64,000 nucleotides of DNA, taken from IMG/VR virus record IMGVR_UViG_3300045971_000895, positions 64,001 through 128,000 of that record, one strand, 5' to 3'. Positions 22,722-61,712 of this stretch are shown one piece after another. The stretch's first letter is position 1. The number at the start of each line of letters is the position of its first letter. The DNA comes from a virus. The notes below the pieces were generated by a model. It was not told the origin of the DNA and made no database searches. It saw only the letters and a list, made by a program, of their open reading frames with translations. The translations under genes and the position numbers were made by a program.

Positions 22722-23198
22722 ATGTTGAAACTCGCCAAGGTCAGACCTCACCAACAGGAGACGCAGCGGACCTGCTCTGCGGCCTGCCTTCGCGCCGTGC
22801 TGCTGCACCATGGTAAGGATGTCCCAGAGGCCTTGCTGGCGAAGGCCATCGGAGTAGCGCACTACGGGGCCGAGCTCTACCAGATCGTGGGGGCGGCGCG
22901 GGCGTTGGGGTTCACAGCGAAGCAAGTCGAGTTCAAGAGCTTGTCGGACGCCTTCAAGCTCCTCGAGCAGGACGTCCCCCTCATCTGCGATGTGCAGAGC
23001 TGGACGAAGAAGGGGAGCGGGCACTACGTCGTTCTCGTGAACGAGAGCGGCGGCCGGGTCAACATCATGGACCCGAACGTCTCAGGCAACTGGCGCACCT
23101 TGTCCGTGAAGGACTTCGATGAGCGCTGGTGGGACGGAGACAACGTCTACAGGGGTCGTGTACTTCGTCGGCCTGCTGTCATCGTTCGACCGAGGTAA
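22722..23198 (+). CDS. papain-like cysteine peptidase, C39-like domain (possible lysis or processing peptidase)
   Basis: Q-x6-C-S-A-A-C-L motif (QQETQRTCSAACLRAVL), a downstream GHYVVL His block and an Asp. Confidence 0.5.
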   Translation: MLKLAKVRPHQQETQRTCSAACLRAVLLHHGKDVPEALLAKAIGVAHYGAELYQIVGAARALGFTAKQVEFKSLSDAFKLLEQDVPLICDVQSWTKKGSGHYVVLVNESGGRVNIMDPNVSGNWRTLSVKDFDERWWDGDNVYRGRVLRRPAVIVRPR

Positions 23199-28483: not shown

Positions 28484-28924
28484 CTAGATGCCGAAGTCGG
28501 TAGGGTCGACTTCTTGAACGTAGACTTCCACCCGTGCGTTCTCGGGGATGGGGTCATGGTGCTTCTCTTGGCTGCCTGCGAAGAAGCGTGAGTCGTCGAT
28601 GTCGATGGCGTCACGCACGCAGTCGGTCAAGAGCTTGATTCGGTTGTCCAGGTCGATTCTCTTATACCGATCTTTCGCCCTTCTTGATGGGGCGACATCG
28701 GGGTTGTTCCAGGACAGGTTCACGAGCTCCATGAAGAAGCGCAGGTGGACGGCGTAGAGGCCGTCTCGGTTCAGCCTGCTGATCTCGTGGAGGTGGTTCT
28801 GGGCCGAGTACTTGGCGAAGCTCTCGGCGAACTCACGGGCCTTCGCGGTGAGCTGCGTTCCGCGGAAGTAGATATGATTTGAGGTCGGCGGCAGGCCCGG
28901 GTAGACGATCTTCAGGGTGGGCAC
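28484..28924 (-). CDS. rusA: RusA-family Holliday junction resolvase
   Basis: LPPTSNHIYF, a lysine and the D-x-D-N motif (RIDLDNRIK). GTG start at 28924 with a GGGGG RBS. The N-terminal extension in the track ORF is junk-like. Confidence 0.6.
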   Translation of the reverse strand: MPTLKIVYPGLPPTSNHIYFRGTQLTAKAREFAESFAKYSAQNHLHEISRLNRDGLYAVHLRFFMELVNLSWNNPDVAPSRRAKDRYKRIDLDNRIKLLTDCVRDAIDIDDSRFFAGSQEKHHDPIPENARVEVYVQEVDPTDFGI

Positions 28925-29103
28925 TTGGCCCCCATGATCACCGGCTTCTCCTTCTTCAGGATGGGGCCGGCGCACTCAGCACAGACGTTGAGTGTCTTGG
29001 ATATCTTGATACCAGCGGGGTCCTCCACGACTCCGCTCACTTGAATGACCGCTGGCTTCTTGTCGCGGCACGTAGCCGCTTCGCATCTCACAGGCTCAGG
29101 CAT
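28912..29103 (-). CDS. zinc-ribbon mini-protein (63 aa)
   Basis: CEAATC...CAEC motifs. Confidence 0.4.
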   Translation of the reverse strand: MPEPVRCEAATCRDKKPAVIQVSGVVEDPAGIKISKTLNVCAECAGPILKKEKPVIMGAKCPP

Positions 29104-34236: not shown

Positions 34237-34485
34237 TCACCTCAGGCTGCGGCTCTGTCGAAAGCGAATCTTACGACGGAGGGCTGACTTCTTGCCTTCC
34301 CCGAACAGCTCCTTCGGCTTCAGGTCGACCGGGTAGAAGGCACCAAAGCCAGGGAGCGTAACAGACTCCCCAGCCCTGATGGCCTCGATGATGCTGACGG
34401 GAAGCACCTCGATGACGGCAGCGACAATCCGCCTCGGGAGCTTCGTCCTCTTCCCGATGTCTGCGACCAGCTCTGAGCGAGTCAT
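34237..34485 (-). CDS. HU/IHF-family DNA-binding protein
   Basis: MTRSELVADIGKRTKLPRRIVAAVIEVL...VTLPGFGAFYPV matches the HU fold. Confidence 0.65.
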   Translation of the reverse strand: MTRSELVADIGKRTKLPRRIVAAVIEVLPVSIIEAIRAGESVTLPGFGAFYPVDLKPKELFGEGKKSALRRKIRFRQSRSLR

Positions 34486-43407: not shown

Positions 43408-43839
43408 CTACACCCTCTGCCCGATACCCGGAGGCGTCTGCGGCTCGGGCAGGATGATGCCTGCCGCGGCGGCCCTCTTCTGCTCCTGCTCCTTGAAGTA
43501 GCGAGCGTAGAGCGCCATCATCCGGAGCCTCGAGTCCTCGCAGACGTCCGAGAGCTTGTAGAAGACCACCGGCCAGAAGGTGATCACTCCCGAGCTGACG
43601 AGGTCGATGTCCAGCAGGAGGATGTCGATGCGCAGGTTCCCGGGCTCCACCTTCTGGAGACGGAGGATCCGGCGGGGGTCCTTCAGCTTCACCCGGACCG
43701 GGGCCACCCCGTCGTCCACGTACTCGACGAGCTCCCCGAAGTACTGCTCGGTGGCGCAGGTCAGGACGCAGAGCTTCTCGGGGTCGACCCCATTCTTGGT
43801 CAGGTCGTCGAGGATGTTCTGCATCATCGCGTCATTCAT
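43408..43839 (-). CDS. hypothetical protein (143 aa)
   Basis: GC3 bias. Confidence 0.4.
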   Translation of the reverse strand: MNDAMMQNILDDLTKNGVDPEKLCVLTCATEQYFGELVEYVDDGVAPVRVKLKDPRRILRLQKVEPGNLRIDILLLDIDLVSSGVITFWPVVFYKLSDVCEDSRLRMMALYARYFKEQEQKRAAAAGIILPEPQTPPGIGQRV

Positions 43840-45295
43840 CTGTGTCGTCCTCTTCCTTGGCTAGTGCCATCATGGTGTTGCGGTAGACCTCAACCAACTC
43901 AGGCGGCAGCTGGCGAGGCGCGTCGTTGGGCTTAACCGTGCTGAAGGGGTAGTTCCAAGTCTTCAGCTCGTGCTTCAGGGACTGGCAGAGCTTCTTCAGT
44001 GGGGGCGCAAGCCAGTCCTCGAAGATGACCACCACCGGCTTCTTCTTGCCCGGGAGCGGCCTCTGGATGCGGCCGAAGGATTGCTGAAGCGCGTTCTTCG
44101 ACTTGTACGGCGTGAGCTGCATGAGGGTGTCGAGCCGCGCGTCGTCGATGCCCTCGTTCCCCAGCTTGGCGATGGCGAAGACGAGCTGGTTGTCCCGTAG
44201 AACGTCCATCCGGTTCTTGGTCTCGGAGACGATGAGGCCCGACCCGGGGAAGAGCGCGTGAAGGATCCTGAGCTGCACCTTCGAGTGAGACAGCGCGATG
44301 ATCTTCCTGCCGGCATCGAGTGCCGTCTTGATGTGCCAGTACCTGAAGGTGTTGGCCGTCAGGTCCTTCGCCAGCAGGGTACGCAGGACGGAGATGTTGA
44401 TCGTGTTGCTCGCCGACCGCGCCTTCTCGTAGTCGATGGTGGAAGGCGTCTGCTGGAAGTAGATGTCCGGGATGATGCGCTGGGTGAGGTCGGAGTAGAA
44501 GGGCTCCCCGATGTTGTAGCGGTAGATCGGGTCGAGCCCATCCTCTCGCTCCGCAGTGGCGGTGAGGCCGATGCGGTCTCCGTAGAAGGGCTTGGCCGTG
44601 ATGGAGAACTTCGGCGCCCCGATGCGATGCACCTCGTCGTAGATGACGAGACCGAAGTAGCGGAAGAACTCCTCTGGCAGCGTTCCATCTTCGATGCGCC
44701 GGTAGAGGGTGGTGACGAGAGCTAAGGTGATCGGGTGTGCCCACTTGCAGACCACACCCTGTACCAGCCCCATCTCGCCATCGAACTTCAGCCCCGGCTT
44801 CAACCCCTTCTCCTCGTTGCCGTAGATGGACTCTACCCACTGCTCGAGGATGCCTGTGTCGGGAACGACTACGAGGGTGGGCACGCCGCGCTGAGCAACC
44901 TTCTTCAGCGACAGCTTGGTCTTCCCCTTACCACAGGCGAGGTTGAGGATTCCGTTGTCGTGCAGCTTGAAGGCTTCCCAGGCCCTTACTTGCTCCTCAT
45001 CCCGAGGGACGACGAGGTCTTCGAACTCGACCCGCTGGAAGCTGGGGCGCAGGTCGACGAACGGGAAGTCGTAGAGAGCGTACTGCGCCGCCGGGAGGAA
45101 CTCTCTCGGACAGATGATGTGGGTCGAAGACTCTTCCCACAGACGGAGCAGGATGTTGGCCTGCTCCGCCTCACTGTAGATGGTGAACTCCAGCGCCCGT
45201 TGAACCGGCCCCTCCCTGATGCCGCTCTTCGGGAGCCAGAGGCTGTTCGACAGGTACGCCTTGCCAGGCTCTTTTGGTACGAAGGAAAGTTCCAT
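43832..45295 (-). CDS. SF2 (DEAD/DEAH-like) helicase
   Basis: Walker A LACGKGKTK, Walker B VIYDEVHRIG, and the later helicase C-domain motif FGRIQRP. Confidence 0.65.
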   Translation of the reverse strand: MELSFVPKEPGKAYLSNSLWLPKSGIREGPVQRALEFTIYSEAEQANILLRLWEESSTHIICPREFLPAAQYALYDFPFVDLRPSFQRVEFEDLVVPRDEEQVRAWEAFKLHDNGILNLACGKGKTKLSLKKVAQRGVPTLVVVPDTGILEQWVESIYGNEEKGLKPGLKFDGEMGLVQGVVCKWAHPITLALVTTLYRRIEDGTLPEEFFRYFGLVIYDEVHRIGAPKFSITAKPFYGDRIGLTATAEREDGLDPIYRYNIGEPFYSDLTQRIIPDIYFQQTPSTIDYEKARSASNTINISVLRTLLAKDLTANTFRYWHIKTALDAGRKIIALSHSKVQLRILHALFPGSGLIVSETKNRMDVLRDNQLVFAIAKLGNEGIDDARLDTLMQLTPYKSKNALQQSFGRIQRPLPGKKKPVVVIFEDWLAPPLKKLCQSLKHELKTWNYPFSTVKPNDAPRQLPPELVEVYRNTMMALAKEEDDTDE

Positions 45296-46048: not shown

Positions 46049-47632
46049 ATGAAGACCGCAGGGGTGATGTTCGACTTCTACGACGACCCGACAGGTTCGG
46101 TCTTGAAGTCCGTGTTCCCGGATGCTGAAGAGCTTCCGGAGGTCGTGAAGACCGCTCACATCCTCAACGCCGAGGAGCGTGACGTCCTTCGCGACGAGGC
46201 CTACGCCCTCGTGATGCACAACGACGGGCAGGTCTTCCGCAAGTTCGCATGCGTGGACCCCGGCAACACGCTCCTCTCCCTCGTCTACTTCGAGAAGACG
46301 GCGGGCATCCTTCCGCAGGAAGCGCGGGACGCGGCCTACGCGAACATCATGGCCCGCGCCGCGGAGTTCGACCTTCTCGACAAGGAGGCCGAGTCCTCGA
46401 CCCAGAAGACGCTCAACGAGACGCACGGCCTCGGTGCCATGGCGGGGGCTGGTGCGCTGTACGCGCACTTGCACGGGCGGCATCTCGGCCGCGGTGCGGC
46501 CTTCGGTGGGACTGCATGGCTCGCGGCCAAGGGACTGAAGGCGGCCGTGAAGGACAAGAAGGCCTCCCTCGAGAAGTCTGCCGTCAAGAAGGAGGACGAG
46601 GAGGAGGCTCCCAAGAAGGACGAGCCCCGCGGCACTGGCAAGCACCCCCAGCGCAAGCGCGACCCGATGGAGCAGCCCTTCGCCGGCGACGAGGCAGACT
46701 GGGCACAGCGCACCAACCTCCGGTCCATCCAGGCCGGCGGGCCGTCCTCAGGCCGGGTGGGCGAGGCTCTCTCCAACCTCAACACCAAGACGGCTGCTGC
46801 CCCAGGCGTGATGCAGCAGATCGCGGCTCACGGCAAGAAGGCCGTCGACTGGGCCAAGCCGCACGCGGCCAAGGCCGTGGAGGCCGTGAAGGCCAACCCC
46901 GGGCTCGCCGCGGGCGCCGCGGGCGCCGGCATCGTGGCCGGTCGCATGTCGAAGAACGCTTCGGTGGACGTCTCCGGCCAGACGCCGGAGATCCGCTTCG
47001 TGAAGCAAGCCGCCGAGCACCACGCTCTCGGCCACAAGTTCCCCCTCGACAGCTACTCGGACATCCGGGCCGCCGTCGACTACTTCAAGCAGAGCTGGCC
47101 GGACTTCCAGCCTCCCGAGCGGCACGAGTTCGCCGTGAAGGTGGCTGCCCGGGCCGAGGCCATCGGCCTCGAGGTGCCGGAGCTGATGGCCCGCTACGGC
47201 TCCACCAGCTACGCCCCCGACGTCGAGGCCCACCTCGCCAACCGGAAGGCCAACTGCGGCGCCGAGTTCCACGAGGTCTACGACGCCCTGAAGGAGAAGC
47301 GGGCCGAGATCGAGCCGGAGCACTTCGCCGCGCTGCTCTCCAAGGCCGACGTCACCACCGGCCTGAACTGGCACTGGGGCGGGGCGGTCTCCGACCCCTG
47401 GCTGGCCACCTTCGGCGGCACGACTGCTTCCGAGAAGACGGCCTTCGGCTGGGAGGGCGGCGGCTACACGGTCGACGCCGAGAAGCTCCAGGAGGCGGCC
47501 GCCAGCGGCGTCCTCAAGGGCAACTTCACCGACGACATCGTGACGGCCTTCGAGAAGGACCCGGTCACCATCTTCTCCTCGATGCCCGACGACACCAAGC
47601 TCATCATGGCCCGTCTGGCCTCGGAGGCTTAG
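46049..47632 (+). CDS. hypothetical protein (527 aa), possible virion/internal protein
   Basis: GC3 bias. Ala/Lys-rich central region. Confidence 0.45.
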   Translation: MKTAGVMFDFYDDPTGSVLKSVFPDAEELPEVVKTAHILNAEERDVLRDEAYALVMHNDGQVFRKFACVDPGNTLLSLVYFEKTAGILPQEARDAAYANIMARAAEFDLLDKEAESSTQKTLNETHGLGAMAGAGALYAHLHGRHLGRGAAFGGTAWLAAKGLKAAVKDKKASLEKSAVKKEDEEEAPKKDEPRGTGKHPQRKRDPMEQPFAGDEADWAQRTNLRSIQAGGPSSGRVGEALSNLNTKTAAAPGVMQQIAAHGKKAVDWAKPHAAKAVEAVKANPGLAAGAAGAGIVAGRMSKNASVDVSGQTPEIRFVKQAAEHHALGHKFPLDSYSDIRAAVDYFKQSWPDFQPPERHEFAVKVAARAEAIGLEVPELMARYGSTSYAPDVEAHLANRKANCGAEFHEVYDALKEKRAEIEPEHFAALLSKADVTTGLNWHWGGAVSDPWLATFGGTTASEKTAFGWEGGGYTVDAEKLQEAAASGVLKGNFTDDIVTAFEKDPVTIFSSMPDDTKLIMARLASEA

Positions 47633-49540: not shown

Positions 49541-50070
49541 AGATCGCCTCCATGGTGAAGTACACGGAGAAGGGCAAGCTGGTGAAGAAGGCCCAGTACG
49601 CCGGCTTCGCCGATGAGTTGGAGAAGATCTCTGCCGGCTTCCTGGCCAATGTCGGGACCAAGATCGTCCAGACTGGGCGCAACGCTGCTCAGTGGGCCAA
49701 GGCCCAGCCGGCTGCAACAGGTGCCGCATTCAAGGACCATCTCCAACCCATGGCGATGATGAAGGACAGTTGGAACAAGTCCAAGTGGTGGGGCATGAAG
49801 GGGCTGACGGTTGCTGGTGCAGGGATGGAAGGGGCCTCCGCGCTCAAGAAGAAGGACCCCGAGGGGCGCGGGCGCGGTAGAGGTCAGCGCCTCGGCAGCG
49901 CCATCGCTGGCACGGCCTCTGGCCTCATCACCATGAAGCATGGGATCATTCCAGCTCTGGCTACCGGGCTCGCCGCAAGCTACGCTGGCGGGAAGGTCGG
50001 GAAGCGGTTCGACAAGATGAAGAGCCACGCGCCGGGCGCTGTGCAGGCCCCACCGCCTGAAAGCACTTGA
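49537..50070 (+). CDS. small protein with FADELEKI motif (paralogue B)
   Basis: 177 aa. Shares the motif with the 47633 gene. Gly/Ala-rich. Confidence 0.4.
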   Translation: MKIASMVKYTEKGKLVKKAQYAGFADELEKISAGFLANVGTKIVQTGRNAAQWAKAQPAATGAAFKDHLQPMAMMKDSWNKSKWWGMKGLTVAGAGMEGASALKKKDPEGRGRGRGQRLGSAIAGTASGLITMKHGIIPALATGLAASYAGGKVGKRFDKMKSHAPGAVQAPPPEST

Positions 50071-52130
50071 TGGCCTACGACAACCTCAGCCTCGGCTTCG
50101 GTGGAACCTCCCGCTTCAGCGGGCAGCGCGGCCGCACGGCCGATGGCATGGGGCGCAGCGGCGTCCGCTACCCGTCGCCCTTCTTCGACCTCGGCCAGAC
50201 CTACCTGCCGCCGGACCAGAAGAAGCTGCTGCACTGGTGCCGCTTCTACTACCTGACGAACCCGCTCATCAACTCGGTCGTGCACAAGATGGCGGAGTAC
50301 CCCATCACCGAGATCATCATCGACGAGAAGGACCAGCAGGTGAAGGAGAAGTGGGAGGAGATGCTGGGCAGCCACCTGCGCTACCGGCCCTTCCAGATCG
50401 AAGTGGGGATCGACTACTTCGCCTACGGCATCTGCATCACCACCATCCACTTCCCCTTCACGAAGTGGCTCCAGTGCCGCCACTGCAAGCACAAGGTGCA
50501 GGCCAAGAAGACCGTCTACAAGTGGCGCAACCTGGACTACATCATCCAGTGCGACAAGTGCGGGACGACGGCGCCGGCGAAGGTGCAGGACTTCTACGAG
50601 AAGGACCTGCGCCGCATCCGCCTCATGCGGTGGAATCCGGAGTACGTCCACGTCGACCCTGGCTTCGCTGGCACGGACCCCATCTACACCTTCGAGCTCC
50701 CGCTCCAGGTCCGCAACGACCTGCTGCTCGGCAAGAAGACCCTGCTCGACACCATCCCCGACGTCTTCGTCGAGGCGCTCCGGCGCAACAAGTTCGTCCG
50801 CTTCGCCGACGAGAACATCTTCGTCTTCAAGCGCCCCATCATCAGCCAGAAGGACAACGGCTGGGGGATGCCGCTCATCTTCCCCGTCCTCAAGGACACC
50901 TTCTACCTCCAGGTGCTGCGCAAGGCGCAGGAGGCCATCGCGCAGGAGCACATCGTCCCGCTGCGCATCCTCTTCCCGCAGGCCGGGTCCAACACCTCCG
51001 ACCCCTACACCACGATCAACCTCGACTCCTGGAAGAGCCGGGTCGAGGGCGAGATCGCGAAGTGGAAGTACGACAACAACTACATCCCCATCCTGCCCCT
51101 GCCCATTGGCAACGAGACCATCGGCGGCGACGGGAAGGCGCTCATGCTGCACCAGGAGATGCAGGCCTGGTCCGACCAGATCGTGGCCGGTATGGGCGTG
51201 CCGCGGGAGTTCGTCTTCGGCGGCCTCCAGTACAGCGGCTCCAACGTCTCCATGCGGATGCTGGAGAACTCCTTCATCGGCTACCGCGTCGACCACGAGA
51301 ACATGCTCAACAACTTCGTGATCCGGCGCATCGCCAACTACATGGGCTGGAAGCCCGTGCGCGCCCACATGAAGCGCTTCAAGATGGCGGACGACCTCCA
51401 GCGCACCGCCTTCCTCTTCCAGCTCAACCAGGCCCAGAAGATCTCCGACGTCACCCTGCTCCAGGAGGCTGACCAGGATCCAGCGGTCGAGGAGCAGAGG
51501 AAGAACATCGAGATGGACCGCCAGCTCGAGTACCAGCGCAAGATGACAATCGCGCAGGCTCAGGTGCAGGCAGAGGCTCAGGCCATCCAGATGAAGGCCC
51601 AGGCCGAGGTGCAGCAGGAGATGATGGCCAAGGGGATGGCGATGCCCGGTGCAGAGGGTGCAGCCGGCGGGCAGCCTGGCGCTCCTGGGGGCCAGCCCGG
51701 GGCACAGCCGGGTGCCGAGGGTGGGCAGCCTGGCCAGCAGGGCGAGATGATGGGCGGGGAGCAGGCGGCTCCCGGGATGCCGGAGAACGCCACAGTCTCC
51801 CCCGAAAACGCCCAGCAGGCCCCGACCGAGGGCGTCCCGCAGGAGATGCAGAGCCCCATCACGCAGGGCCAGACGGGTGGCGGGATGAACCTCCTCTACC
51901 TCGCTCGCCGTGCCGTGATCGCGATCCAGGAGACGGAGAAGCAGGACCCCTCCGGCGCGAAGAAGAGCCTCGCGCTCCAGACGATGAAGATGTCCAACCC
52001 CCAGCTCTACTCGCTCGTCATCCGGATGCTCCAGAGCGAACAGGGTTCCCAGGCCAAGCCGCTCGATCCCGTGCAGAGCCCGCTGCCGCAGCAGAAGCCC
52101 GAGAGGCGGCAGTCTCCGGTCGGCGTCTAG
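50067..52130 (+). CDS. portal-like protein (687 aa) with embedded zinc ribbon and Gly/Gln/Pro-rich C-terminal region
   Basis: Size and position suggest a portal. CRHCKHK...CDKCG ribbon. QPGAPGGQPGAQPG repeats at 51650-51800. The assignment is tentative. Confidence 0.35.
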   Translation: MMAYDNLSLGFGGTSRFSGQRGRTADGMGRSGVRYPSPFFDLGQTYLPPDQKKLLHWCRFYYLTNPLINSVVHKMAEYPITEIIIDEKDQQVKEKWEEMLGSHLRYRPFQIEVGIDYFAYGICITTIHFPFTKWLQCRHCKHKVQAKKTVYKWRNLDYIIQCDKCGTTAPAKVQDFYEKDLRRIRLMRWNPEYVHVDPGFAGTDPIYTFELPLQVRNDLLLGKKTLLDTIPDVFVEALRRNKFVRFADENIFVFKRPIISQKDNGWGMPLIFPVLKDTFYLQVLRKAQEAIAQEHIVPLRILFPQAGSNTSDPYTTINLDSWKSRVEGEIAKWKYDNNYIPILPLPIGNETIGGDGKALMLHQEMQAWSDQIVAGMGVPREFVFGGLQYSGSNVSMRMLENSFIGYRVDHENMLNNFVIRRIANYMGWKPVRAHMKRFKMADDLQRTAFLFQLNQAQKISDVTLLQEADQDPAVEEQRKNIEMDRQLEYQRKMTIAQAQVQAEAQAIQMKAQAEVQQEMMAKGMAMPGAEGAAGGQPGAPGGQPGAQPGAEGGQPGQQGEMMGGEQAAPGMPENATVSPENAQQAPTEGVPQEMQSPITQGQTGGGMNLLYLARRAVIAIQETEKQDPSGAKKSLALQTMKMSNPQLYSLVIRMLQSEQGSQAKPLDPVQSPLPQQKPERRQSPVGV

Positions 52131-52649: not shown

Positions 52650-52868
52650 TCACTTCGGTTCCTGCGGGAAGCAGGGGAGCAGATCCATCAAGTCGTCGTA
52701 GAGGCTTGCTGACTGGTCGCGAAGGCGGGTGAGTCGAGCTACCAAGGCCGGAGGCGCTCCTTGGTAGCTCGCTCGTTGGACGAGGTCGTTGAGGACCTTC
52801 ACTTGGTCCTTCATGTAGTCGCCCTGGTCGATGATGTCTTCCTTCCAGATCTGGTCGCCGAGGCTCAT
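52650..52868 (-). CDS. hypothetical protein (72 aa)
   Basis: GC3 bias. Confidence 0.35.
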   Translation of the reverse strand: MSLGDQIWKEDIIDQGDYMKDQVKVLNDLVQRASYQGAPPALVARLTRLRDQSASLYDDLMDLLPCFPQEPK

Positions 52869-53353
52869 GCGCTAGGATCCTCTAGTCGCTGCTTGAGCCT
52901 GGCCTCCTCCTGTTTCTCTTCCTCCATCTCTTCCAGGGACTCCTGGGCCATCTCCATCGCCAGCTGGCTGATGGTCTCGTACCACTCGTCGGGGCAGTAG
53001 GTCTCCGCGTACCACTCGACCATGCAGCGCCCTTCATGGAAGCGGAAGGTGTTCATCTCATCGGCGCACCGAGGATCATCGACGACGGCGGCTAGCCCCG
53101 TCTGCTGGTTGATTCCGCTCATCCCGATGTAGAGCTCGACCGCCTGCTCTTCCGGCATGATGACTCCGCCGCAGTGGTCACACTCCAGCTGCTCGACAGC
53201 AGGCTGGCGGGACAGCTCGGGCCGTGGGGGAGGGTGGCACGGCGCCGGCGGTGGCGGAAGGTAAGCAGAAGGCGGGTAGTACGGTGCTGGGGCAGAAGGC
53301 AGGGGTGCTGGTTGTCCTGCTGCCCTTGGGTAGAACGGCGGAGGGTTAGCCAT
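52865..53353 (-). CDS. protein with Pro-rich N-terminus and acidic C-terminus (162 aa)
   Basis: PPFYPRAAGQPAPLPSAPAPYYPP... then a CDHCGG motif. Confidence 0.4.
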   Translation of the reverse strand: MANPPPFYPRAAGQPAPLPSAPAPYYPPSAYLPPPPAPCHPPPRPELSRQPAVEQLECDHCGGVIMPEEQAVELYIGMSGINQQTGLAAVVDDPRCADEMNTFRFHEGRCMVEWYAETYCPDEWYETISQLAMEMAQESLEEMEEEKQEEARLKQRLEDPSA

Positions 53354-53404
53354 GTGCCTCCGCGAGTAGGGCAGGGAACCAGACCCTGCGACTCGGCTTG
53401 CTCA

Positions 53405-53890
53405 TCAGCGTGCTCTCCGTAGAACGAGTTGAAGGAGTGAGGAGCCTCGACCACAAGACATGCAGCCAGGGAGCAGGCGCTTGTCTGGGTCGTAGTCCTC
53501 GTCACCTGGGTCCAGAGACGGGTCTCGGCCAGCGTGGTAGAAGCCTGCGATGTTGCGCTCCACTTTGGGGTTGTCCTTCTCGTGCCTCCAGGACTCATTG
53601 AGGCAGATGAAGCACTCCCAGCTGGGGGTCCAACCTTTGCTTTCCTCTCCAGCGATCCACTGCTGAAGGAGCTCACAGCTCAAGCAATCGAAGGCCTGTC
53701 CGCACAGCATTTCTTGGAAGACTCGATGCTCTTCGAGGTACAGCGGGTTGCCTTCTGCATCCACCTCCACCTGTTCGTTCTCCTGGAGGAGTGCACGACC
53801 TCCCACGATAGGAAGACCGAGCGCTGTGAACTGCCCTCCATTGGAACGGAAGTAGAGAGGGCAGGCCGCTGTCTTGGTGGGGTGGTCCAT
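53405..53890 (-). CDS. Cys-rich protein (161 aa)
   Basis: Multiple C..C pairs (CGQAFDCLSC, CFIC, CMSC). Confidence 0.4.
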   Translation of the reverse strand: MDHPTKTAACPLYFRSNGGQFTALGLPIVGGRALLQENEQVEVDAEGNPLYLEEHRVFQEMLCGQAFDCLSCELLQQWIAGEESKGWTPSWECFICLNESWRHEKDNPKVERNIAGFYHAGRDPSLDPGDEDYDPDKRLLPGCMSCGRGSSLLQLVLRRAR

Positions 53891-54002: not shown

Positions 54003-54312
54003 GAGGAAGAATCCTCTTCAGATACGGGGTTGGGTGTGGGTTGCTTGGGGGGAAACATCTTGCCGAGAAGTGCGTCCTGCTTCTCGTCTTCCCACAACGA
54101 CGACTGCGTCGGAAGCATCGCACCTCCTTTCGGGCGTGAGAGACTAACATCTACTCCGACAACTCCTTATCCCTAGAGTTCTGGGCATTTCGTTTGACGT
54201 ATCGAACGCTTGGCCGCTATCCTCGAAGCAACTAGAGGCCGCGAAGACCTCGCATGCGTCGAGGTAGCGTACTCTGGAGCTACGTCAGCTCCCTTTCGCG
54301 AAGGGCAGACCC
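54003..54312. promoter_or_regulatory. ~300-nt ORF-poor leader/divergent promoter region upstream of the RNAP gene
   Basis: Lower GC. Short hairpins (ACCTCG-catgcgt-CGAGGT, GGAGCT-acgtc-AGCTCC). Candidate TTGACG-N17-CTATCC element. Confidence 0.3.
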
Positions 54313-57300
54313 TTGGACGAGAACATCCAGCCTGAGCAGGCCTTCGAGTCGCTCAAGAAGAACACGCTCGAAGCCATCAAGTCCTACTTCCCAGACGGCA
54401 AGTACGCTGGCAGGAAGCAAAGCATCCACCTCACCAACCTGCGCGTCGAGGACAACCTCAAGTCCGACGACGTCTCTTCGCAGACCGAGGTGAAGGACAA
54501 GGACGGAACCTGGGGCGTCCCCATCAAGGCCGACATGAAGCTCGTGGACAACACCACGGGCAAGGTGATCGACGAGACGAAGGGCTCCATCCTCGCCCGG
54601 CTCCCCAAGCTGACCAACCGCTACAGCTACATCGTCAACGGCAGCGAGTACCAGGTCGACCACCTGTTCCGCCTGAAGAGCGGCATCTACGCCCGGGTGC
54701 AGGACAACGGTGAGCTCGAGTCGGAGTTCAACCTGGCGAAGGGTGGTCGCCCCTTCTCGGTCCACCTCGACCCCGTGAAGCGCAAGCTGTCGATGAAGTA
54801 CGGCAACTCCCACATCCCGCTCTACCCGATCATGAAGAGCCTCGGGGTGGCGGACGACGACATCGAGAAGAGCTGGGGCAAGGCACTCTTCGAGGCCAAC
54901 AAGCCGAAGACCGACGAGAAGTTCAATGGCTCTCTCGCCAAGCTCGTGAAGCTGGTCTCCGAGGAGCCTGTACCTGCTGACCTCTCCCCCGACGACCTGC
55001 ACAAGCACGTCAACTCCTTCTTCAACCAGCTCTCCGTCCGCCCCGACACCACGAAGCTCACGCTCGGGGAAGCGCACGAGGCGGTGACCGGGAAGACCCT
55101 GCTCCAGGCGGCGCACAAGCTGCTCGGTGTCTCTCGCGGCACGCACCAGCCCGACGACCGCGACAGCCTCGCCTTCAAGGAGACTGCCAGCATCGAGGAC
55201 TTCATCCCCGAGAAGATCCTCCGCGCCGGCGCGCGTACCATCCGGCCCAGGCTTCGCCAGACCATCGACCAGAAGCAGTCGGTCCGAGACATCGTCGCCT
55301 CCAACCTCTTCGGCCGCCCGGTGGGCGAGTTCTTCACGAAGGGCGGCTCGGTGGCGGAACGGTCCGAGCAGACCAACCCCATCCAGATGCTCTCAGCCCA
55401 CCGCAAGACCACGCTCATGTCGCGGGACTTCGGCGGCATCAAGAGCGAGAACTCCCTCACCGAGGGGATGCAGACCATCAACCAGAGCCACTTCGGCTTC
55501 CTGGACCCGATGCACACGCCGGAAGGCGAGAAGATCGGCATCACCCTCCACCTCGCTTCCCACGTCCGGAAGAACGGGAAGGACCTCGAGATCCCCGTCT
55601 TCGACACTCACACAGGGAAGTCCACCTGGGTGAACGCCGTCGACTTCCACGGGGCAGATGCCGTGCTCCCGGACCAGGTGACCTGGGTCGACGGCAAGCC
55701 CAAGCCCATCTCCGCCACGGTCCGCACCAAGACCTCTGGCGGCGACATCGTCAACAAGCCCTTCAAGGACTCGCGCTACGTCATGCCCTCCACCAAGGGC
55801 ATGTGGAACTACGCCTCCAACCTCGTCCCCTTCCTGTCGGCCGACAACGGCAACCGCATCATGATGGCCGACAAGCAGATGGAGCAGGCCATCGGCCTGA
55901 AGCACCGAGAGGTGCCGCTGGTTCAGTCGAAGACGGACCATGGCGATCCCGAGCACACCTTCGAGAAGCTCTTGGGGCACTTCATCGCCTCCCGTGCGCC
56001 CGCCGCGGGGAAGGTCTCGTCCATCAAGGGAGACGTCGTTCACATCGCTGGAGACGACGGCAAGAAGCATGAGGTCCACCTCTACAACAACTTCCCCCTG
56101 AACGATGCGAAGGGGATGCTGCACTCGGACCTGACCGTGAAGGTCGGCGACAAGGTTCGCAAGGGCCAGGTGGTAGCCGACAACAACTTCACCAAGGACG
56201 GCAGCCTCGCCATCGGTACCAACCTGCGGGTCGGCTACATCCCGTACAAGGGCTACAACTTCGAGGACGGCATCGTCATCTCGGAGAGCGCGGCGAAGAA
56301 ACTGACCTCCGAGCACCTGCACAAGAAGATCGTCGAGATCGACCCCGACAACGACCACATCGGCAAGGCGAAGTACCAGGCGTGGGCCATCTCGGAGTCG
56401 CAGGCCATGCCCAAGGCGTACCTCGACGCCCTCGAGGACAACGGCGTCGTGAAGGTCGGCACCAAGGTGAAGCCAGGCCAGGTGCTCGTCGCCGCCATCG
56501 GGAAGAACGACACCAAGAAGGCGTCGCTCATGTCGGCCTACGGCAACAAGCGCGCCTTCAAGCCGGTGAAGAACAAGTCGATGGTCTGGGACGAGGACCA
56601 CGAGGGAACCGTCACCAAGGTGGTGCACGACCCGCAGGGCCGCGGCGTGCGCGTCTACGTCCGCACCGACGAGCCCGTCGTCATCGGCGACAAGCTCACC
56701 GGCCGGCACGGCAACAAGGGCATCGTCTCGCTGATCCTGCCTGACCACGAGATGCCCTTCACGAAGAACGCCAAGGGGGAGCGGGAGTCGCTGCACGTCC
56801 TCCTCAATCCGTCAGGCATCCCCTCCCGCATCAACCCCGGCCAGATGCTGGAGACTGCCGCAGGGAAGATCGCCGAGAAGACGGGCAAGCCCTACATCGT
56901 CGACAACTTCGGTGACGCCCACTCCGACCACCGCACCAAGCTGGAGAAGGAGCTGAAGGCTCACGGGATCACGGACGAGGAGACTGTCTACGACCCGAGC
57001 GATACTCGCCGCGCCCTCGGCTCCGTGCTGGTCGGTCCTCAGTACGTCCTGAAGCTGAAGCACCAGGTGGAGAAGAAGGTCTCGGCTCGAGGCGGAGGGA
57101 CGGACGTCAACGGGCGGAAGCTCGCCGTCGACACCGACCAGCAGCCGGTGAAGGGCGGCGAGCACGGCGGTCAGGGCTTCGGCGCTCTCGAGATGTACTC
57201 GCTGCTCGGCCACAACGCCCGGCACAACATCCGGGAGATGTCGACCTACAAGAGCGACAACCAGGACATGCTCTTCTGGAACATGATCCAGAACGGGCAC

Positions 57301-60300
57301 GAGCCGCCGCCCCCCACTGTCCCCTTCAGCTACCGGAAGTTCGAGGGCCTGCTCCGTGGGCTTGGCGTCAACGTGACGAAGGACGGGACCTCCGTCCGCA
57401 TCCATCCCATCACCAACAAGGAAGTCCTGCGCCTCACCGGGAACCGGGAACTGAAGGACGCAGCGAAGACCCTCCGCTCCAAGGACCTGAAGCCTGTCCC
57501 GGGCGGCCTCTTCGATGAGCAGCTCACCGGTGGCCTCGACGGCGACAAGTGGTCCCACATCAAGCTCGACGAGCCGGTACCCAACCCCATCTTCTGTGGC
57601 GGCGGCAACCAGCCCGGACCTGTGCCTGTTCTCCTCGGCCTCAAGATGAAGGAGTTCGAGGACGTCATGGCGGGGAAGCACTCGATCGGAGGGCTGACCG
57701 GTGGCGCAGCCGTCGAGGCGGCCCTCAAGAAGGTCGACGTCCACAAGGAAGTCGACGCCTTGAAGAGAGCCCTGCCAGGGCTGCGCGCCGACGAGCTGGA
57801 CCGGGCCAACAAGAAGCTCAAGTACCTGCTCGCGCTGAAGGACTTGGACCTCAAGCCCCACGACGCCTACATGATGCACTACGTTCCGGTGGTGCCTCCG
57901 AAGTTCCGTCCGGCCTCGGCCACCCCCTCGGGCGACGTGAACTACTCCCCGCTCAACGGGCACTACAAGAACATCAGCCTCATCAACGAGCACCTCCGCA
58001 ACTTCGACTCGGCCCACTTCGACGACAAGCACAAGCAGCCGCTCCGCACCCAGCTCTGGGACGCCATGAAGGCGCTCCAGGCGGTGGGCACTCATCGAGA
58101 GGTCTACGACACGGACCAGAGCGGCGACCGAGCCCTGAAGGGCATCCTCGACATCATCGGCGGCAAGCCAGGAGTGGAGCAGCCGAAGGAGGGCTACTTC
58201 CAGTCGAAGCTGGTGAAGCGCCGGCAGAACCTCTCTGTCCGCTCGACCATCGTCCCTGAACCGAAGTTGGGCATCGACGAGGTCGGTCTCCCCAAGGGCG
58301 CGGCGATGGAGATGTACAAGCCCTACGTCGTGGCCCAGCTCCAGAAGTGGAACTTCCACCCGCTGGCGGCGCAGGACGAGATCAAGAAGATGACCCCCAT
58401 CGCCTTCCGCGCGCTGGAGAAGGTCGTGGTGGATCGTCCTCTGCTCTTGAAGCGTGATCCGGTGCTGCACAAGTTCGGAGTCATGGCCTTCAAGCCGAAG
58501 CTGGTGGAGGGCAAGGCCATCCAGATCCACCCGCTGGTCTGCGGTGGCTTCAACGCCGACTTCGACGGAGACACGATGGCCGGCACCATCCCCATGTCCA
58601 GAGAGGCCGTGGAGGAAGCGAAGAAGCTCTTCCCTTCCAACAACCTCTTCAGCCCCACCAACTACGGGGCGATGTACCTGCCGGCCAACGAGGCCCTGCT
58701 GGGGCTCCACCTCCTCTCGAAGTGGGGCAAGAAGACAGGCAAGACGTTCGCCAACACGACCGAACTCAACAAGGCCGTGGACGAAGGCCATGCAGATGTC
58801 ACGGACGTCGTCCACCTGAAGGGCATGAAGGAGCCCACCACGCTGGGCCGGCTACTCCTCGAGTCGCGCCTCCCTCGTGGCTACTCCCAGAACTCGAAGG
58901 TCCTCCACAACAGCGAGTTCGAGTTCTCGAAGAGAGAGCTGAAGAAGATGGCCCCGGAGATCGCCAACAAGCACCGGGACCACTACGCCAACACCGTCGA
59001 CTCCCTGAAGAACCTCGGCAACGAGTGGTCCTACAAGCTGGGCTTCTCCATCGGCCTCAAGGATCTGAAGACCATCCCCCAGCGTGACGCCATCATCGGC
59101 AGGGCCGAGAAGAAGGTGCATGAGCTGTCGAGCAAGGGAGAGGCCCACGACGCCGACGTCATCCGCATCTACCAGGGAGCCACGGGAGAGATCGAGGAAG
59201 CCCAGAAACTCCTACACGGCGGGCCGACGCAGGGAGACCACCGCCTTGCCCAGATGGTCTTCTCCGGTGCTCGAGGTGATGCTTCCCAGCTTCGCCAGAT
59301 GATCGCAGCCCCCATGCTGGTGGAGAGTTCCTCCGGCAAGGTGGTGCCCTACCCGCTCAAGCGCTCCTTCGCAGAGGGTCTCGACATCGGGGACTTCTGG
59401 ATGTACCAGCACGGCGCCCGCAAGGGCATGATCCAGAAGGGCCGCGGCACAGCAGACCCTGGCGCCATCACCAAGGACATCATCAACGCCTCCATGTCGA
59501 CCCTCATCGTCTCTCCGGACTGCGGGACGAAGGAAGGTGTTCACATGAAGGTCAACGACGAGGACATCCACGACCGCTACTTGGCGGCTCCCTACAAGCT
59601 GAAGGACGGCACCCACATCAAGGCTGGAGAACTTCTCACGCCTGCCGTGCTCTCTCGGCTCAAGAACTCGAAGATCGAGACGGTCTCCGTCCGCAGCGCG
59701 TTGAAGTGCGCTCACGGAGATGGGATGTGCGCGAAGTGCTTCGGCCTGAATGAGTCCGGAGTTCTCCACAGCAACGGGACCAACATCGGCATCCTGGCCA
59801 GCCAGGCCATGGGAGAGCCGTCGACCCAGCTCTCGATGCGGGCCTTCCACACGGGCGGCGTCGCCGGGTCAGCGGCCGGCAAGTCGATGGACGCCATCAC
59901 CCGTCTCCGCAACCTCCTCGAGATGCCGAAGCGGATCCGGGATGAGGCCACGGTGTCGATGGCGACCGGCAAGGTCAGCGCGGTCCGCAAGGACCCAGCC
60001 GGCGGCGCCGACATCATCGTCACCAGCTACCACAACGACCAGCCGGTGGAGACGAAGCACTACATCCCCCGGCACCTCATCAACGAGGACATCAAGGTGG
60101 GGTCGCAGGTGAAGAGGGGCGACAAGCTCTCTGGTGGGTTCGTCAACCCGCACCGGCTCCTCGAGTCGACGAAGAGCATCCACGCCGTGCAGAACTACCT
60201 GACCGATGAACTCCACGATGGGCTGTTCAAGGGGCTCGGGGTGCGACGCAGGAACATCGAGGTGGCGGTTCGCAACATCACCAACCTGACCAAGGTGAAG

Positions 60301-60624
60301 GACCCGGGCCACTCGGAGTGGCTGCCAGGGGACATCCTTCCTCGCTCCGTGGTCGAGGAGCACAACAGGACGAAGGGGGAGAAGGAAGCCCCCGTCATCC
60401 ACGAGCCGGTGCTCAAGGGCGTCGGAGAGATCCCTCGCAACATCACCACCGACTGGATGGCCAGGCTCAACTACCAGAACCTCCACTCGACGGTTCGTGG
60501 TGCGGCCGCCATGGCCCAGAAGTCCAACATTCACGGGAGCCATCCCATCCCCGGGCTGGCGTATGGTGCGGAGTTTGGTAGGCCACCCGCTGACCTGAAG
60601 TCCAAGAAGCCGCACGTGTACTAG
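54313..60624 (+). CDS. single-polypeptide multisubunit-type RNA polymerase, fused beta and beta-prime (2103 aa)
   Basis: Beta blocks: PMHTPEGEKIGITLHLA, LTGRHGNKGIVS, GGEHGGQGFGALEMYSL. Beta-prime blocks: catalytic NADFDGD, bridge-helix-like GARKGMIQKGRGTADPGAITKD, trigger-loop-like AMGEPSTQLSMRAFHTGGVAG. TTG start at 54313. Confidence 0.8.
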   Translation: MDENIQPEQAFESLKKNTLEAIKSYFPDGKYAGRKQSIHLTNLRVEDNLKSDDVSSQTEVKDKDGTWGVPIKADMKLVDNTTGKVIDETKGSILARLPKLTNRYSYIVNGSEYQVDHLFRLKSGIYARVQDNGELESEFNLAKGGRPFSVHLDPVKRKLSMKYGNSHIPLYPIMKSLGVADDDIEKSWGKALFEANKPKTDEKFNGSLAKLVKLVSEEPVPADLSPDDLHKHVNSFFNQLSVRPDTTKLTLGEAHEAVTGKTLLQAAHKLLGVSRGTHQPDDRDSLAFKETASIEDFIPEKILRAGARTIRPRLRQTIDQKQSVRDIVASNLFGRPVGEFFTKGGSVAERSEQTNPIQMLSAHRKTTLMSRDFGGIKSENSLTEGMQTINQSHFGFLDPMHTPEGEKIGITLHLASHVRKNGKDLEIPVFDTHTGKSTWVNAVDFHGADAVLPDQVTWVDGKPKPISATVRTKTSGGDIVNKPFKDSRYVMPSTKGMWNYASNLVPFLSADNGNRIMMADKQMEQAIGLKHREVPLVQSKTDHGDPEHTFEKLLGHFIASRAPAAGKVSSIKGDVVHIAGDDGKKHEVHLYNNFPLNDAKGMLHSDLTVKVGDKVRKGQVVADNNFTKDGSLAIGTNLRVGYIPYKGYNFEDGIVISESAAKKLTSEHLHKKIVEIDPDNDHIGKAKYQAWAISESQAMPKAYLDALEDNGVVKVGTKVKPGQVLVAAIGKNDTKKASLMSAYGNKRAFKPVKNKSMVWDEDHEGTVTKVVHDPQGRGVRVYVRTDEPVVIGDKLTGRHGNKGIVSLILPDHEMPFTKNAKGERESLHVLLNPSGIPSRINPGQMLETAAGKIAEKTGKPYIVDNFGDAHSDHRTKLEKELKAHGITDEETVYDPSDTRRALGSVLVGPQYVLKLKHQVEKKVSARGGGTDVNGRKLAVDTDQQPVKGGEHGGQGFGALEMYSLLGHNARHNIREMSTYKSDNQDMLFWNMIQNGHEPPPPTVPFSYRKFEGLLRGLGVNVTKDGTSVRIHPITNKEVLRLTGNRELKDAAKTLRSKDLKPVPGGLFDEQLTGGLDGDKWSHIKLDEPVPNPIFCGGGNQPGPVPVLLGLKMKEFEDVMAGKHSIGGLTGGAAVEAALKKVDVHKEVDALKRALPGLRADELDRANKKLKYLLALKDLDLKPHDAYMMHYVPVVPPKFRPASATPSGDVNYSPLNGHYKNISLINEHLRNFDSAHFDDKHKQPLRTQLWDAMKALQAVGTHREVYDTDQSGDRALKGILDIIGGKPGVEQPKEGYFQSKLVKRRQNLSVRSTIVPEPKLGIDEVGLPKGAAMEMYKPYVVAQLQKWNFHPLAAQDEIKKMTPIAFRALEKVVVDRPLLLKRDPVLHKFGVMAFKPKLVEGKAIQIHPLVCGGFNADFDGDTMAGTIPMSREAVEEAKKLFPSNNLFSPTNYGAMYLPANEALLGLHLLSKWGKKTGKTFANTTELNKAVDEGHADVTDVVHLKGMKEPTTLGRLLLESRLPRGYSQNSKVLHNSEFEFSKRELKKMAPEIANKHRDHYANTVDSLKNLGNEWSYKLGFSIGLKDLKTIPQRDAIIGRAEKKVHELSSKGEAHDADVIRIYQGATGEIEEAQKLLHGGPTQGDHRLAQMVFSGARGDASQLRQMIAAPMLVESSSGKVVPYPLKRSFAEGLDIGDFWMYQHGARKGMIQKGRGTADPGAITKDIINASMSTLIVSPDCGTKEGVHMKVNDEDIHDRYLAAPYKLKDGTHIKAGELLTPAVLSRLKNSKIETVSVRSALKCAHGDGMCAKCFGLNESGVLHSNGTNIGILASQAMGEPSTQLSMRAFHTGGVAGSAAGKSMDAITRLRNLLEMPKRIRDEATVSMATGKVSAVRKDPAGGADIIVTSYHNDQPVETKHYIPRHLINEDIKVGSQVKRGDKLSGGFVNPHRLLESTKSIHAVQNYLTDELHDGLFKGLGVRRRNIEVAVRNITNLTKVKDPGHSEWLPGDILPRSVVEEHNRTKGEKEAPVIHEPVLKGVGEIPRNITTDWMARLNYQNLHSTVRGAAAMAQKSNIHGSHPIPGLAYGAEFGRPPADLKSKKPHVY

Positions 60625-60626
60625 CC

Positions 60627-61712
60627 ATGTCACTCTTCCGCCGGCAGCTCGATGCAGCCACCGTACAGCGGGCGCGCGTGCTCGACGTGAACGTTACCAA
60701 CTACACCCTCGTGGTGCAGACGGAGCTGACGCAGAAGACGCTGGCTTGGGTCTCTTGGTCATCCCCCTACATGCACCCCCACAACGGCGAGGGGGTCTAC
60801 TGCATGCCCGAGGTGGGGTCCCTCTGCTGGCTCATGGAGCCGTCGGATGGTGGGATGCCTTTCGTGGTGGGCTGGACGTCCCTGCCTGGGAAGGACCGCA
60901 GCCACCGCAACCGACGACTCGACCTCAACCCGGGGGACATCTACCTCGGTACCCGAGACGAGAACCACATCCTCCTGCGCCGCGGCGGTGTGGTAGAGAT
61001 CGGGGCCACGCCTCTGGCCCAGCGTCTCTTCCTCCCGATCAACAACATGATCAAGGACCTCTGTGCCAACTACTCCCTCCAGACGTTGGGCGGAGAGCTG
61101 AAGTGGACGGTCGGCATCCCGGAGGACAACTCCTACGGGGACAAGCAGACGACCTTCACCATCAACGCCAAGGAGAAGGCCACGGATGCCGAACATGTGG
61201 CCACGGTCCAAATCGGTTCCCACAAGGGTGACGATGCCACTATCCTGAGTCTGGTTCTCCGTGCGTCAGGAGAGAAGGGCGCAGTCGCCAATCTCACGGT
61301 CACGGGGAAGAAGTCCGGAGACTTGGACCTGACATCCAAGGGCGCCATCACCTGGAAGGTGACGGGAGATGTGAAGGTGGATGCTCAGAACATCACGCTC
61401 ACCGCCAAGCAGAAGGCGTCTCTCGTCGGCACGCTGGTCGCCGAGATGACGGGCGGTCTCGTGAACATCATCTCCAAGACCGGGGCTGTGGCTGTTGCGG
61501 CCGCCGGCGGGATGGTGGTCTCAACGTCTGGGCCCGGCCCGGCTCTCGTTGTAGGGGCCGGTACTCCAGAGCCGGTGATGCTGGGGACCTCGGACCTCAT
61601 CAAGTGGCTCACGACGCATGTGCACATCCAGAATCCGCCCGGTAGCATCACCACCGGCACGCCGCCTGAGCCCCCGCCCGCCAAGGCAGCCAAGAACCTG
61701 AAGGCATCGTAG
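60627..61712 (+). CDS. baseplate central spike, gpV/VgrG/gp5-like (OB-fold plus beta-helix)
   Basis: N-terminal YCMPEVGSLCWLMEPSDGGMPFVVGW resembles the gpV OB domain. C-terminal repeats KVTGDVKVDAQNITLTAKQKASLVG. Confidence 0.45.
   Translation: MSLFRRQLDAATVQRARVLDVNVTNYTLVVQTELTQKTLAWVSWSSPYMHPHNGEGVYCMPEVGSLCWLMEPSDGGMPFVVGWTSLPGKDRSHRNRRLDLNPGDIYLGTRDENHILLRRGGVVEIGATPLAQRLFLPINNMIKDLCANYSLQTLGGELKWTVGIPEDNSYGDKQTTFTINAKEKATDAEHVATVQIGSHKGDDATILSLVLRASGEKGAVANLTVTGKKSGDLDLTSKGAITWKVTGDVKVDAQNITLTAKQKASLVGTLVAEMTGGLVNIISKTGAVAVAAAGGMVVSTSGPGPALVVGAGTPEPVMLGTSDLIKWLTTHVHIQNPPGSITTGTPPEPPPAKAAKNLKAS

Follow-up and report, generated by a model that had tools for sequence, protein, structure and literature searches.

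A predicted single-chain beta/beta-prime RNA polymerase lacking the beta-prime N-terminal zinc ribbon in a large lineage of tailed phages

As a rule, the beta and beta-prime subunits of a bacterial-type RNA polymerase depend on an alpha dimer for being brought together. In the cellular RpoBC enzymes of Helicobacter and Wolbachia the C-terminus of beta is joined to the N-terminus of beta-prime in one open reading frame (ORF), which shows that these termini lie next to each other in the enzyme and that joining them is tolerated. Among phages, the nearest described counterparts of the enzyme treated here are those of Salmonella phage Arash and the Vibrio phages of the D69 group, which divide the polymerase within beta-prime, and the mReC polymerases of metagenomic phages, in which beta and beta-prime are separate proteins. 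The subject of this report is a gene for a fused beta/beta-prime RNA polymerase (RNAP) in the window, the whole 64,000-nucleotide stretch that was analysed, which comprises positions 64,001 to 128,000 of IMG/VR virus record IMGVR_UViG_3300045971_000895. The gene and its parts are listed in Table 1, and the ORF very probably encodes a real and functional polymerase, predicted to be a single chain of 233 kDa.

Pfam profiles match the beta side of the protein with Rpb2_2 and, between amino acids (aa) 250 and 990, with Rpb2_3, Rpb2_6 (E 3e-61) and Rpb2_7, and the beta-prime side with Rpb1_1 to Rpb1_5 between aa 1170 and 2000. Against solved structures, aa 14-1020 align in one stretch with residues 29-1053 of the cyanobacterial beta subunit 8syi_C (E 1.7e-76), and aa 1110-2060 align with residues 173-1143 of the C. 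thermocellum beta-prime subunit 8i23_D (E 1e-117). The beta domain set is complete, with region D, the acidic pair, GRHGNKG and region I, and so is the beta-prime set, with NADFDGD, the bridge helix and the trigger loop. An earlier sequence-only reading had placed beta and beta-prime in one phage polypeptide, and this is borne out by the Pfam matches, the structure alignments and the located motifs; every catalytic motif it named was found in the protein, and the N-terminal part proved RpoB-like and the C-terminal part RpoC-like, both from end to end. Its estimate that the chain is about 600 aa shorter than a bacterial beta plus beta-prime holds against E. coli (1342 + 1407 aa), but the gap shrinks to about 290-335 aa against compact enzymes such as those of B. 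subtilis (1193 + 1199 aa) and C. thermocellum (1250 + 1188 aa). Identity to any bacterial polymerase is 25-29%, and the PHROGs families labelled RNA polymerase beta subunit score only 30-92 bits against the chain. The identical protein (P0001) is a called gene on a JGI metagenome contig of 198,259 bp, the TTG start falls in the alignment column where a 65%-identical relative has ATG, and the guanine plus cytosine (GC) fractions at the three codon positions (0.61/0.39/0.91) are like those of the other genes in the window.

At the junction no linker separates the final helix and strand of beta, FSYRKFEGLLRGLGVNVTKDG, from the opening strand of beta-prime, TSVRIHPITNKEVL. In an AlphaFold2 model of aa 931-1460, with a mean predicted local distance difference test score (pLDDT) of 80, the junction strands form a beta hairpin with block-mean pLDDT of about 73-95, and a confident two-helix coiled coil at aa 1143-1177 corresponds to the clamp helices. 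The top Foldseek matches of this model were beta-prime N-terminal halves, including the cyanobacterial gamma subunit, at E 1e-30. A homologue search of 5.8 billion proteins returned 765 matches at E <= 1e-20, from which 126 were retrieved (the 120 best and six cluster members); 99 of these are full-length fused homologues of 2079-2130 aa and 45-100% identity. The assemblies behind them are those of JGI, ENA, Logan and NCBI, and the contigs reach 195-220 kb. When the junction-spanning segment aa 780-1420 was searched exhaustively with HMMER against 1.84 billion representatives at 50% identity, the best 150, reaching down to 40% identity and E 1e-125, included no stand-alone beta or beta-prime and consisted of full-length fused proteins, longer ones with inserts, and fragments crossing the junction. 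The fused design, earlier called unusual, is thus common, with at least 150 clusters at 50% identity in metagenomes. In a MAFFT alignment of the 99 homologues, aa 1001-1100 are constant in length and 55-60% identical to the window protein. Measured against a relative of 95% protein identity, the ratio of non-synonymous to synonymous substitution (dN/dS) is 0.09 over the gene and 0.08 over aa 1000-1110; against one of 86% identity the two values are 0.13 and 0.06. Junction and gene are under purifying selection.

Judged from these comparisons, the fusion is a conserved family trait and not a chimera. The earlier reading had itself raised an assembly chimera as an objection, and the conserved junction in 99 homologues, together with the lack of any stand-alone subunit among the best 150 representatives, answers it. 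A single sequencing error could merge neighbouring rpoB and rpoC, and cellular fusions do exist in Helicobacter and Wolbachia, so that the ORF might be a frameshift, an assembly join or a fused rpoBC of cellular origin on a wrongly assigned contig, yet this is extremely improbable given one architecture from four data sources, the purifying selection on the junction, the portal, hub, large terminase, head protease and baseplate genes that flank the RNAP gene, the less than 30% identity to cellular enzymes and the absence of DNA matches in the phage collection. Assembly chimera and frameshift were rejected on the strength of the 99 homologues, the representatives and dN/dS.

Many of the fused homologues (P0008-P0270) carry intein-sized insertions of 340-530 aa with Pfam matches to LAGLIDADG_3, Intein_splicing and Hom_end. 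They occupy at least ten distinct sites, mostly in or beside conserved catalytic motifs, corresponding to window residues ~402, 629-648, 788-805, 838-844, 971-993, 1076-1081, 1289, 1421-1425, 1808 and 1844-1860. Up to seven are found in one protein of 4739 aa (P0176) and none in the window copy, and the family as a whole is a striking intein hot spot.

Compared with cellular enzymes, the chain is, by alignment, without lineage-specific insertions and without the beta-prime N-terminal zinc ribbon. The segment at the site of the loss holds no cysteines; only six occur in the whole protein, four of them being the ligands of the second zinc site, and the N-terminal third of beta-prime has a single one (C1095), so the four-cysteine ribbon is absent. 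The deletion is directly visible against the beta-prime of Rhizobium phage RHph_TM30, where CxC...CxxC is kept, and the ribbon is likewise missing across the fused family and in Arash and D69. RHph_TM30, a cultured phage of 208 kb in the Kleczkowskaviridae, has a stand-alone beta-prime of 1127 aa with the zinc ribbon intact (L087 5995-9378) and no beta gene beside it, and represents a different lineage of phage bacterial-like polymerase. In the beta part of the fused chain, the alignment to T. thermophilus beta shows Ala and Met at the positions of the rifampicin-cluster residues His526 and Ser531, and a 2-aa insertion. Because the cluster I pocket is altered in this way, the enzyme is probably insensitive to rifampicin.

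The best protein matches in the phage collection came from the Vibrio phages D69, D181 and D148 and from Salmonella phage Arash, at 29-32% identity. In the alignment Arash and D69 show the identical beta/beta-prime junction and have also lost the N-terminal zinc ribbon, but they encode a protein of 1525-1527 aa with beta and the N-terminal part of beta-prime, and a separate protein of about 608 aa with the rest. In Arash the second beta-prime gene lies 4.7 kb away, whereas all fused homologues are continuous at the position of the cut. No group I intron was found at the beta-prime split of D69 and Arash, and the split is real. As here, their RNAP gene comes after the portal gene, and in portal and large terminase they share about 30% identity with the window phage; Arash also shares a SNF2-type helicase partner with some members of the fused clade. 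Unlike what is found in the visible part of the window phage, Arash and D69 encode a sigma-70-family protein, gp10. Their genomes measure 181-187 kb and their hosts are gammaproteobacterial, while the GC content of the window phage is 62%. Since Arash and D69 have the exact junction, the zinc-ribbon loss and a related portal and terminase, the fusion and the loss of the ribbon are read as shared derived characters of one large lineage, and the Arash/D69 arrangement, from the alignment, as differing from the fused form by one cut in beta-prime. The extra split within beta of D181 and D148 is a different matter, namely a group I intron with a homing endonuclease gene behind it. In D181 the intron occupies L086 1617-1897 (Rfam RF00028, 100.7 bits, E 4e-25) and the endonuclease gene 1911-2528, and the D181 record lists the exons as separate hypothetical proteins.

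The mReC phages resemble the window phage in being tailed and metagenomic, in having beta and beta-prime that are found with cellular profiles, and in the motif NADxDGD, and several of their contigs are around 180 kb or more (PMC7481178). They differ in that beta and beta-prime are two proteins of at least 800 aa each, in two size classes, in the entries considered here from Supplementary Data 2, and the paper mentions fusion for crAssphage only (PMC7481178). All mReC large terminases given there with a Pfam match belong to PF03237, whereas that of the window phage belongs to PF05876 (PMC7481178). The mReC-type major capsid family PF07068 was matched by none of 16 head-module proteins of the window phage, one of which matches the PHROGs major head family instead.

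The cellular RpoBC proteins have about 2890 aa, are encoded in a ribosomal-protein/rpo operon, work with alpha, omega and sigma partners and keep the zinc ribbon. The window RNAP shares with them the joining of the two ends in one ORF and is otherwise unlike them, having 2103 aa, phage genes on both sides, less than 30% identity and a deleted ribbon. The enzymes of phiKZ and AR9, with which the earlier reading had compared it, are likewise phage-encoded two-barrel polymerases, one set of which is carried in the virion for early transcription, and a Swi2/Snf2 helicase co-occurs with them (PMC7598289, PMC7824862). They are indeed split into more pieces, as that reading held, being 4-5 highly divergent polypeptides in two paralogous sets without a sigma-family factor (PMC7598289, PMC7824862), whereas the window RNAP is one chain that matches bacterial beta-prime at E 1e-117; they are however not its nearest relatives, mReC and Arash/D69 being nearer. 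Very large single polypeptides that are packaged and injected, or thought to be, are also found in crAss-like phages and N4. For the crAss enzyme no sequence similarity with beta or beta-prime is detectable (PMC7481178), and that of N4 has a T7-like single-subunit fold, whereas the window RNAP is a canonical beta plus beta-prime. At 3500 aa, the N4 virion RNA polymerase shows that a chain of this size is deliverable. No published account of a fully fused bacterial-type phage beta/beta-prime was found in full-text searches and jumbo-phage reviews. What was already known are the bacterial-like phage polymerases of the mReC type, the Arash/D69 junction, present in those genomes without comment, and the cellular fusions; new are the complete single chain devoid of the zinc ribbon, the high degree to which it is conserved and the extent of the clade that carries it.

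Partners of the polymerase were sought in the visible genome, about 110 kb of about 198 kb, consisting of the window, the left 10 kb (L008) and the right ~30 kb (L006, L012, L091). Pfam detected no alpha, omega or sigma in 56 other ORFs from the window and its right-hand continuation (L006, L012), and Pfam and PHROGs together gave the same result for some 60 ORFs from these sequences, in agreement with the earlier statement that no alpha- or omega-like gene is visible nearby. The wider search that had been proposed for the rest of the genome was run over the ~110 kb with the same outcome, which covers part and not all of the ~198 kb. Searches with the Arash and D69 proteins by tblastn gave no sigma, alpha or omega match, and L084, a sigma-bearing contig of 201.5 kb, has no protein in common with the window phage. 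By its Pfam match (Sigma70_r3, E 9e-9), Arash gp10 is a true sigma, with 44% identity in the D69 group and about 160 related metagenomic proteins. A different partner is seen in the fused clade, where two 45%-identical relatives encode a SNF2-family ATPase (SNF2-rel_dom + Helicase_C) at a distance of 4-5 kb from the fused RNAP (L088 21048-22544, L089 20518-21996), and a third contig that carries a fused RNAP encodes it too (L017 18569-20044). These orthologues are 35-38% identical to Arash gp217 (L090 2262-3680), the gene of which directly follows that of the beta-prime C-terminal part, and the ATPase may be a RapA- or NPH-I-like transcription partner. No orthologue was seen in the visible ~110 kb of the window phage, and the 487-aa helicase at 43832-45295 (-) was rejected as a candidate for it.

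Phage two-barrel polymerases can do without alpha and omega, because the enzymes of phiKZ and AR9 function without either, and the fused enzyme probably works without phage-encoded alpha and omega. The phage chain might instead combine with the alpha dimer, omega and sigma of the host in a hybrid enzyme that redirects the host machinery. The failure to find these three in about 110 kb would fit such a hybrid, as would the retained clamp helices and flap-tip helix, the sigma-70-like character of the promoter-like sites and the continued use of alpha, omega and sigma by the Helicobacter fusions. It is nevertheless unlikely, because at just 25-29% identity to bacterial polymerases host-specific interfaces would hardly be kept over the many hosts of the clade; moreover, its closest relatives in culture bring a sigma-70-family protein of their own, and half of the genome lies outside the search for the three partners.

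In the favoured reading the fused chain would be the phage's own transcriptase, folding to an active core with neither omega nor an alpha dimer as platform. It would be made alongside the virion proteins and packaged in the capsid, enter the cell with the DNA and start phage transcription, after which new copies would continue the programme. Promoter choice would be given by a separate initiation factor, for which relatives use a sigma-70-family protein; such a factor is presumably needed because the clamp helices and flap tip are kept and the relatives' gp10 is a sigma. Taken as a whole, with its own transcriptase independent of alpha and omega, delivery by the virion, a separate factor and an altered rifampicin site, this account is judged somewhat likelier to be right than wrong. 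Delivery by the virion is evenly balanced when taken alone. It is supported by the position of the RNAP gene in a structural block on the same strand and by particle mass spectrometry of Arash, in which gp206, with the same junction, gave the most spectra of any protein (PMC10585845). The beta-prime C-terminal part gp216, the sigma gp10 and the helicase gp217 were also abundant in Arash particles (PMC10585845), and delivery gains further support from the gp217 orthologues near the fused gene in L088 and L089 and on the fused-RNAP contig of L017.

Several observations weigh against virion delivery and the wider account. The authors of the Arash study note that abundant enzymes could contaminate particle preparations (PMC10585845), particle proteomics comes from Arash only, and the fully fused members are known here from their genes alone. 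An alpha, omega, sigma or second polymerase gene may lie in the remaining ~90 kb, and homologues of the Arash/D69 sigma were not detected in the visible ~110 kb and 80+ related loci with two hidden Markov models, one of 2 and one of 118 gp10-like proteins. A phage-specific promoter motif was not detected either, exact k-mers and mismatch-tolerant 8- and 10-mers being no better than shuffles in intergenic DNA; GCGTCGAGGTAG, present both ahead of the polymerase gene and at 41785 (-), was judged a chance repeat. The earlier reading had suggested that the enzyme may define its own promoter class; the promoter-like sites located are of the sigma-70-like kind only. Finally, because a sigma-70-like promoter candidate with conserved hexamers precedes the gene, its transcription by the host polymerase would be a natural fit and there would be less need for an injected enzyme.

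This last point leads to an alternative in which the enzyme is not a virion protein and serves middle and late transcription only, its gene being transcribed by the host sigma-70 polymerase in a T7-like scheme. In a 95%-identical relative (L003) the hexamers of the candidate promoter are kept and the spacer is different. Downstream of it, a hairpin of the predicted leader has the AAGGG ribosome-binding site base-paired to CCCUU, a stretch that includes the first two bases of the UUG start; because the leader hides both the ribosome-binding site and this weak start, expression would appear to be regulated, and the leader may serve translational control of the polymerase gene. No second polymerase gene is seen in the visible ~110 kb, as this scheme would have it. 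Sigma-70-like matches number three in 64 kb, of which two are intergenic and both of these lie upstream of plus-strand operon starts; the other intergenic site, at 46049, stands ahead of a structural operon and none stands ahead of the minus-strand replication genes, which argues against a scheme confined to middle and late expression, as do the location of the RNAP gene between portal and baseplate hub on the structural strand and the spectral abundance of the Arash homologue in particles (PMC10585845). A purely intracellular enzyme is for these reasons considered possible but rather improbable, and virion delivery as set out above is retained as the working account.

In a more far-reaching form of the virion-delivery account, the chain would be a self-sufficient core without alpha or omega, packaged together with the SNF2-type ATPase and the initiation factor and independent of the host, with the fusion and the loss of the zinc ribbon as adaptations to passage through the tail and refolding. 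This form is put forward tentatively, as a speculation that is probably wrong in at least some part. If true, it would make the enzyme the smallest canonical beta/beta-prime polymerase known, and the phages a large uncultured clade of ~200 kb with poxvirus-like transcription independent of the host polymerase. For enzymology, the conserved single chain, as a natural minimal version of the enzyme, could show which parts are dispensable and whether fusion replaces the assembly platform. For phage biology, the large family, with contigs of 195-220 kb, links the orphan cultured groups of Arash and the D69-like Vibrio phages, which in turn make a widespread, hitherto undescribed strategy of transcription accessible to experiment. 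A compact and probably rifampicin-insensitive enzyme with its cognate factor could also be applied as an orthogonal transcription system.

Table 1. Features of the fused RNAP gene, its product and its surroundings (positions are those of the window)
Feature	Position	Strand	Details
Baseplate and tail genes (Baseplate_J/wedge)	0-23 kb	+	Large genes
Replication block	29-45 kb	-	PolA, primase, DnaB, UvsX-like recombinase, Cas4-like nuclease, deoxynucleoside monophosphate kinase
Plus-strand block	from 46 kb	+	Portal, RNA polymerase, hub
Portal protein gene	50067..52130	+	PHROGs portal match; 30% identity to Arash and D69 portals; upstream neighbour
Sigma-70-like promoter candidate TTGACG-N18-TATCCT	54194..54223	+	~90 nt upstream of start codon
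Structured leader (predicted)	54228..54325	+	-38.3 kcal/mol, z = -2.1
Fused beta/beta-prime RNA polymerase gene	54313..60624	+	2103 aa, TTG start, stop included
Beta-like module, aa 1-1025	54313..57387	+	N-terminal lobes through C-terminal clamp segment, complete; 8syi_C alignment, Pfam
Rifampicin-binding cluster I equivalent	55357..55437	+	HMMER alignment to T. thermophilus beta; altered
Beta conserved region D, DPMHTPEGEKIG	55504..55539	+	aa 398-409
Beta active-site acidic pair motif, GYNFEDGIVIS	56251..56283	+	GYNFEDG = aa 647-653
Flap-tip helix region, KAYLDALEDNGVVKVG	56413..56460	+	Aligned to T. thermophilus flap tip; docks sigma region 4 in bacteria, putative role here
Beta catalytic lysines, GRHGNKG	56701..56721	+	aa 797-803
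Beta conserved region I, GGQGFGALEMYSL	57166..57204	+	GGQGFGALEM = aa 952-961
Fusion junction	57325..57429	+	99-homologue alignment, Arash/D69 alignment, dN/dS, AlphaFold2
Beta-prime-like module, aa 1026-2103	57388..60621	+	Pfam, 8i23_D alignment, Foldseek
Site of lost beta-prime N-terminal zinc ribbon, GGLFDEQLTGGLDGDKWSHIKLDEPVPNPIF	57502..57594	+	No cysteines
Clamp helices (coiled coil)	57700..57840	+	Predicted helices aa 1143-1177, pLDDT >90, and alignment; putative sigma docking
Catalytic Mg-binding aspartates, NADFDGD	58552..58572	+	aa 1414-1420
Arash/D69 beta-prime cut position, continuous here	58819..58830	+	aa 1503-1506
Bridge helix	59407..59499	+	aa 1699-1729
Second zinc site, kept	59512..59745	+	C1737, C1799, C1806 and C1809 align with bacterial site
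Trigger loop, no SI3-type insertion	59812..59868	+	GEPSTQLSMRAFHTGG = aa 1834-1849
Baseplate hub/spike-like gene	60627..61712	+	Pfam Phage_base_V, E 1.4e-4, just under curated cut-off

The window belongs to a tailed-phage genome of 62% GC with three gene blocks (Table 1). The hub gene starts 3 nt past the RNAP stop codon and holds the same position in L088 and L089, and the gene order of portal, small genes, polymerase, hub and a protein of ~700 aa is the same in relatives at 45-46% identity. To the right of the hub follow Endonuclease VII, a cell-wall amidase, RNase HII and, ~8 kb beyond the hub, a GpA-type large terminase (PF05876 GpA_ATPase), and also genes for a head-maturation-protease-like protein and a major head protein, together with further large structural genes. 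The extension walk through L008, L006, L012 and L091 met structural, lysis and nucleotide-metabolism genes only. Rfam and tRNA scans of the 64-kb window gave nothing, a near-identity DNA search of the phage collection gave no match, and a scan of genome contigs gave no relative.

Between the portal operon and the RNAP gene, the slot at 52650-53890 (-) holds three small ORFs of 72, 162 and 161 aa without a family match. Because L088 and L089 carry other genes there, a class II-like ribonucleotide reductase and small minus-strand ORFs, the slot is a variable insertion site. The tail and baseplate block is closed by a Peptidase_C39 protein, a cysteine protease of the bacteriocin-processing type, at 22722-23198 (+), and a longer version of 332-355 aa lies in the relatives between the polymerase-hub block and the SNF2 gene (L088 19994-21061). 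Ahead of the baseplate genes, on the plus strand of L008 1-9615, are genes for a 1533-aa protein with collagen repeats, for two glycosyltransferases, one of them fused to a methyltransferase (1061 aa), and for a B12-binding radical SAM enzyme, which may form a module for virion glycosylation or modification. The replication block also contains an HU-like DNA-binding protein at 34237-34485 (-) (Bac_DNA_binding, E 2e-10) and a RusA resolvase at 28484-28975 (-). A 572-aa protein with a head-maturation-protease-like N-terminal domain (L006 14749-15380; L012 4157-5875) occurs on 72 IMG/VR contigs, and 70 loci of the searched set also have an Arash-type large terminase; going by this distribution, the protein marks a very large phage group that includes the fused-polymerase phages.

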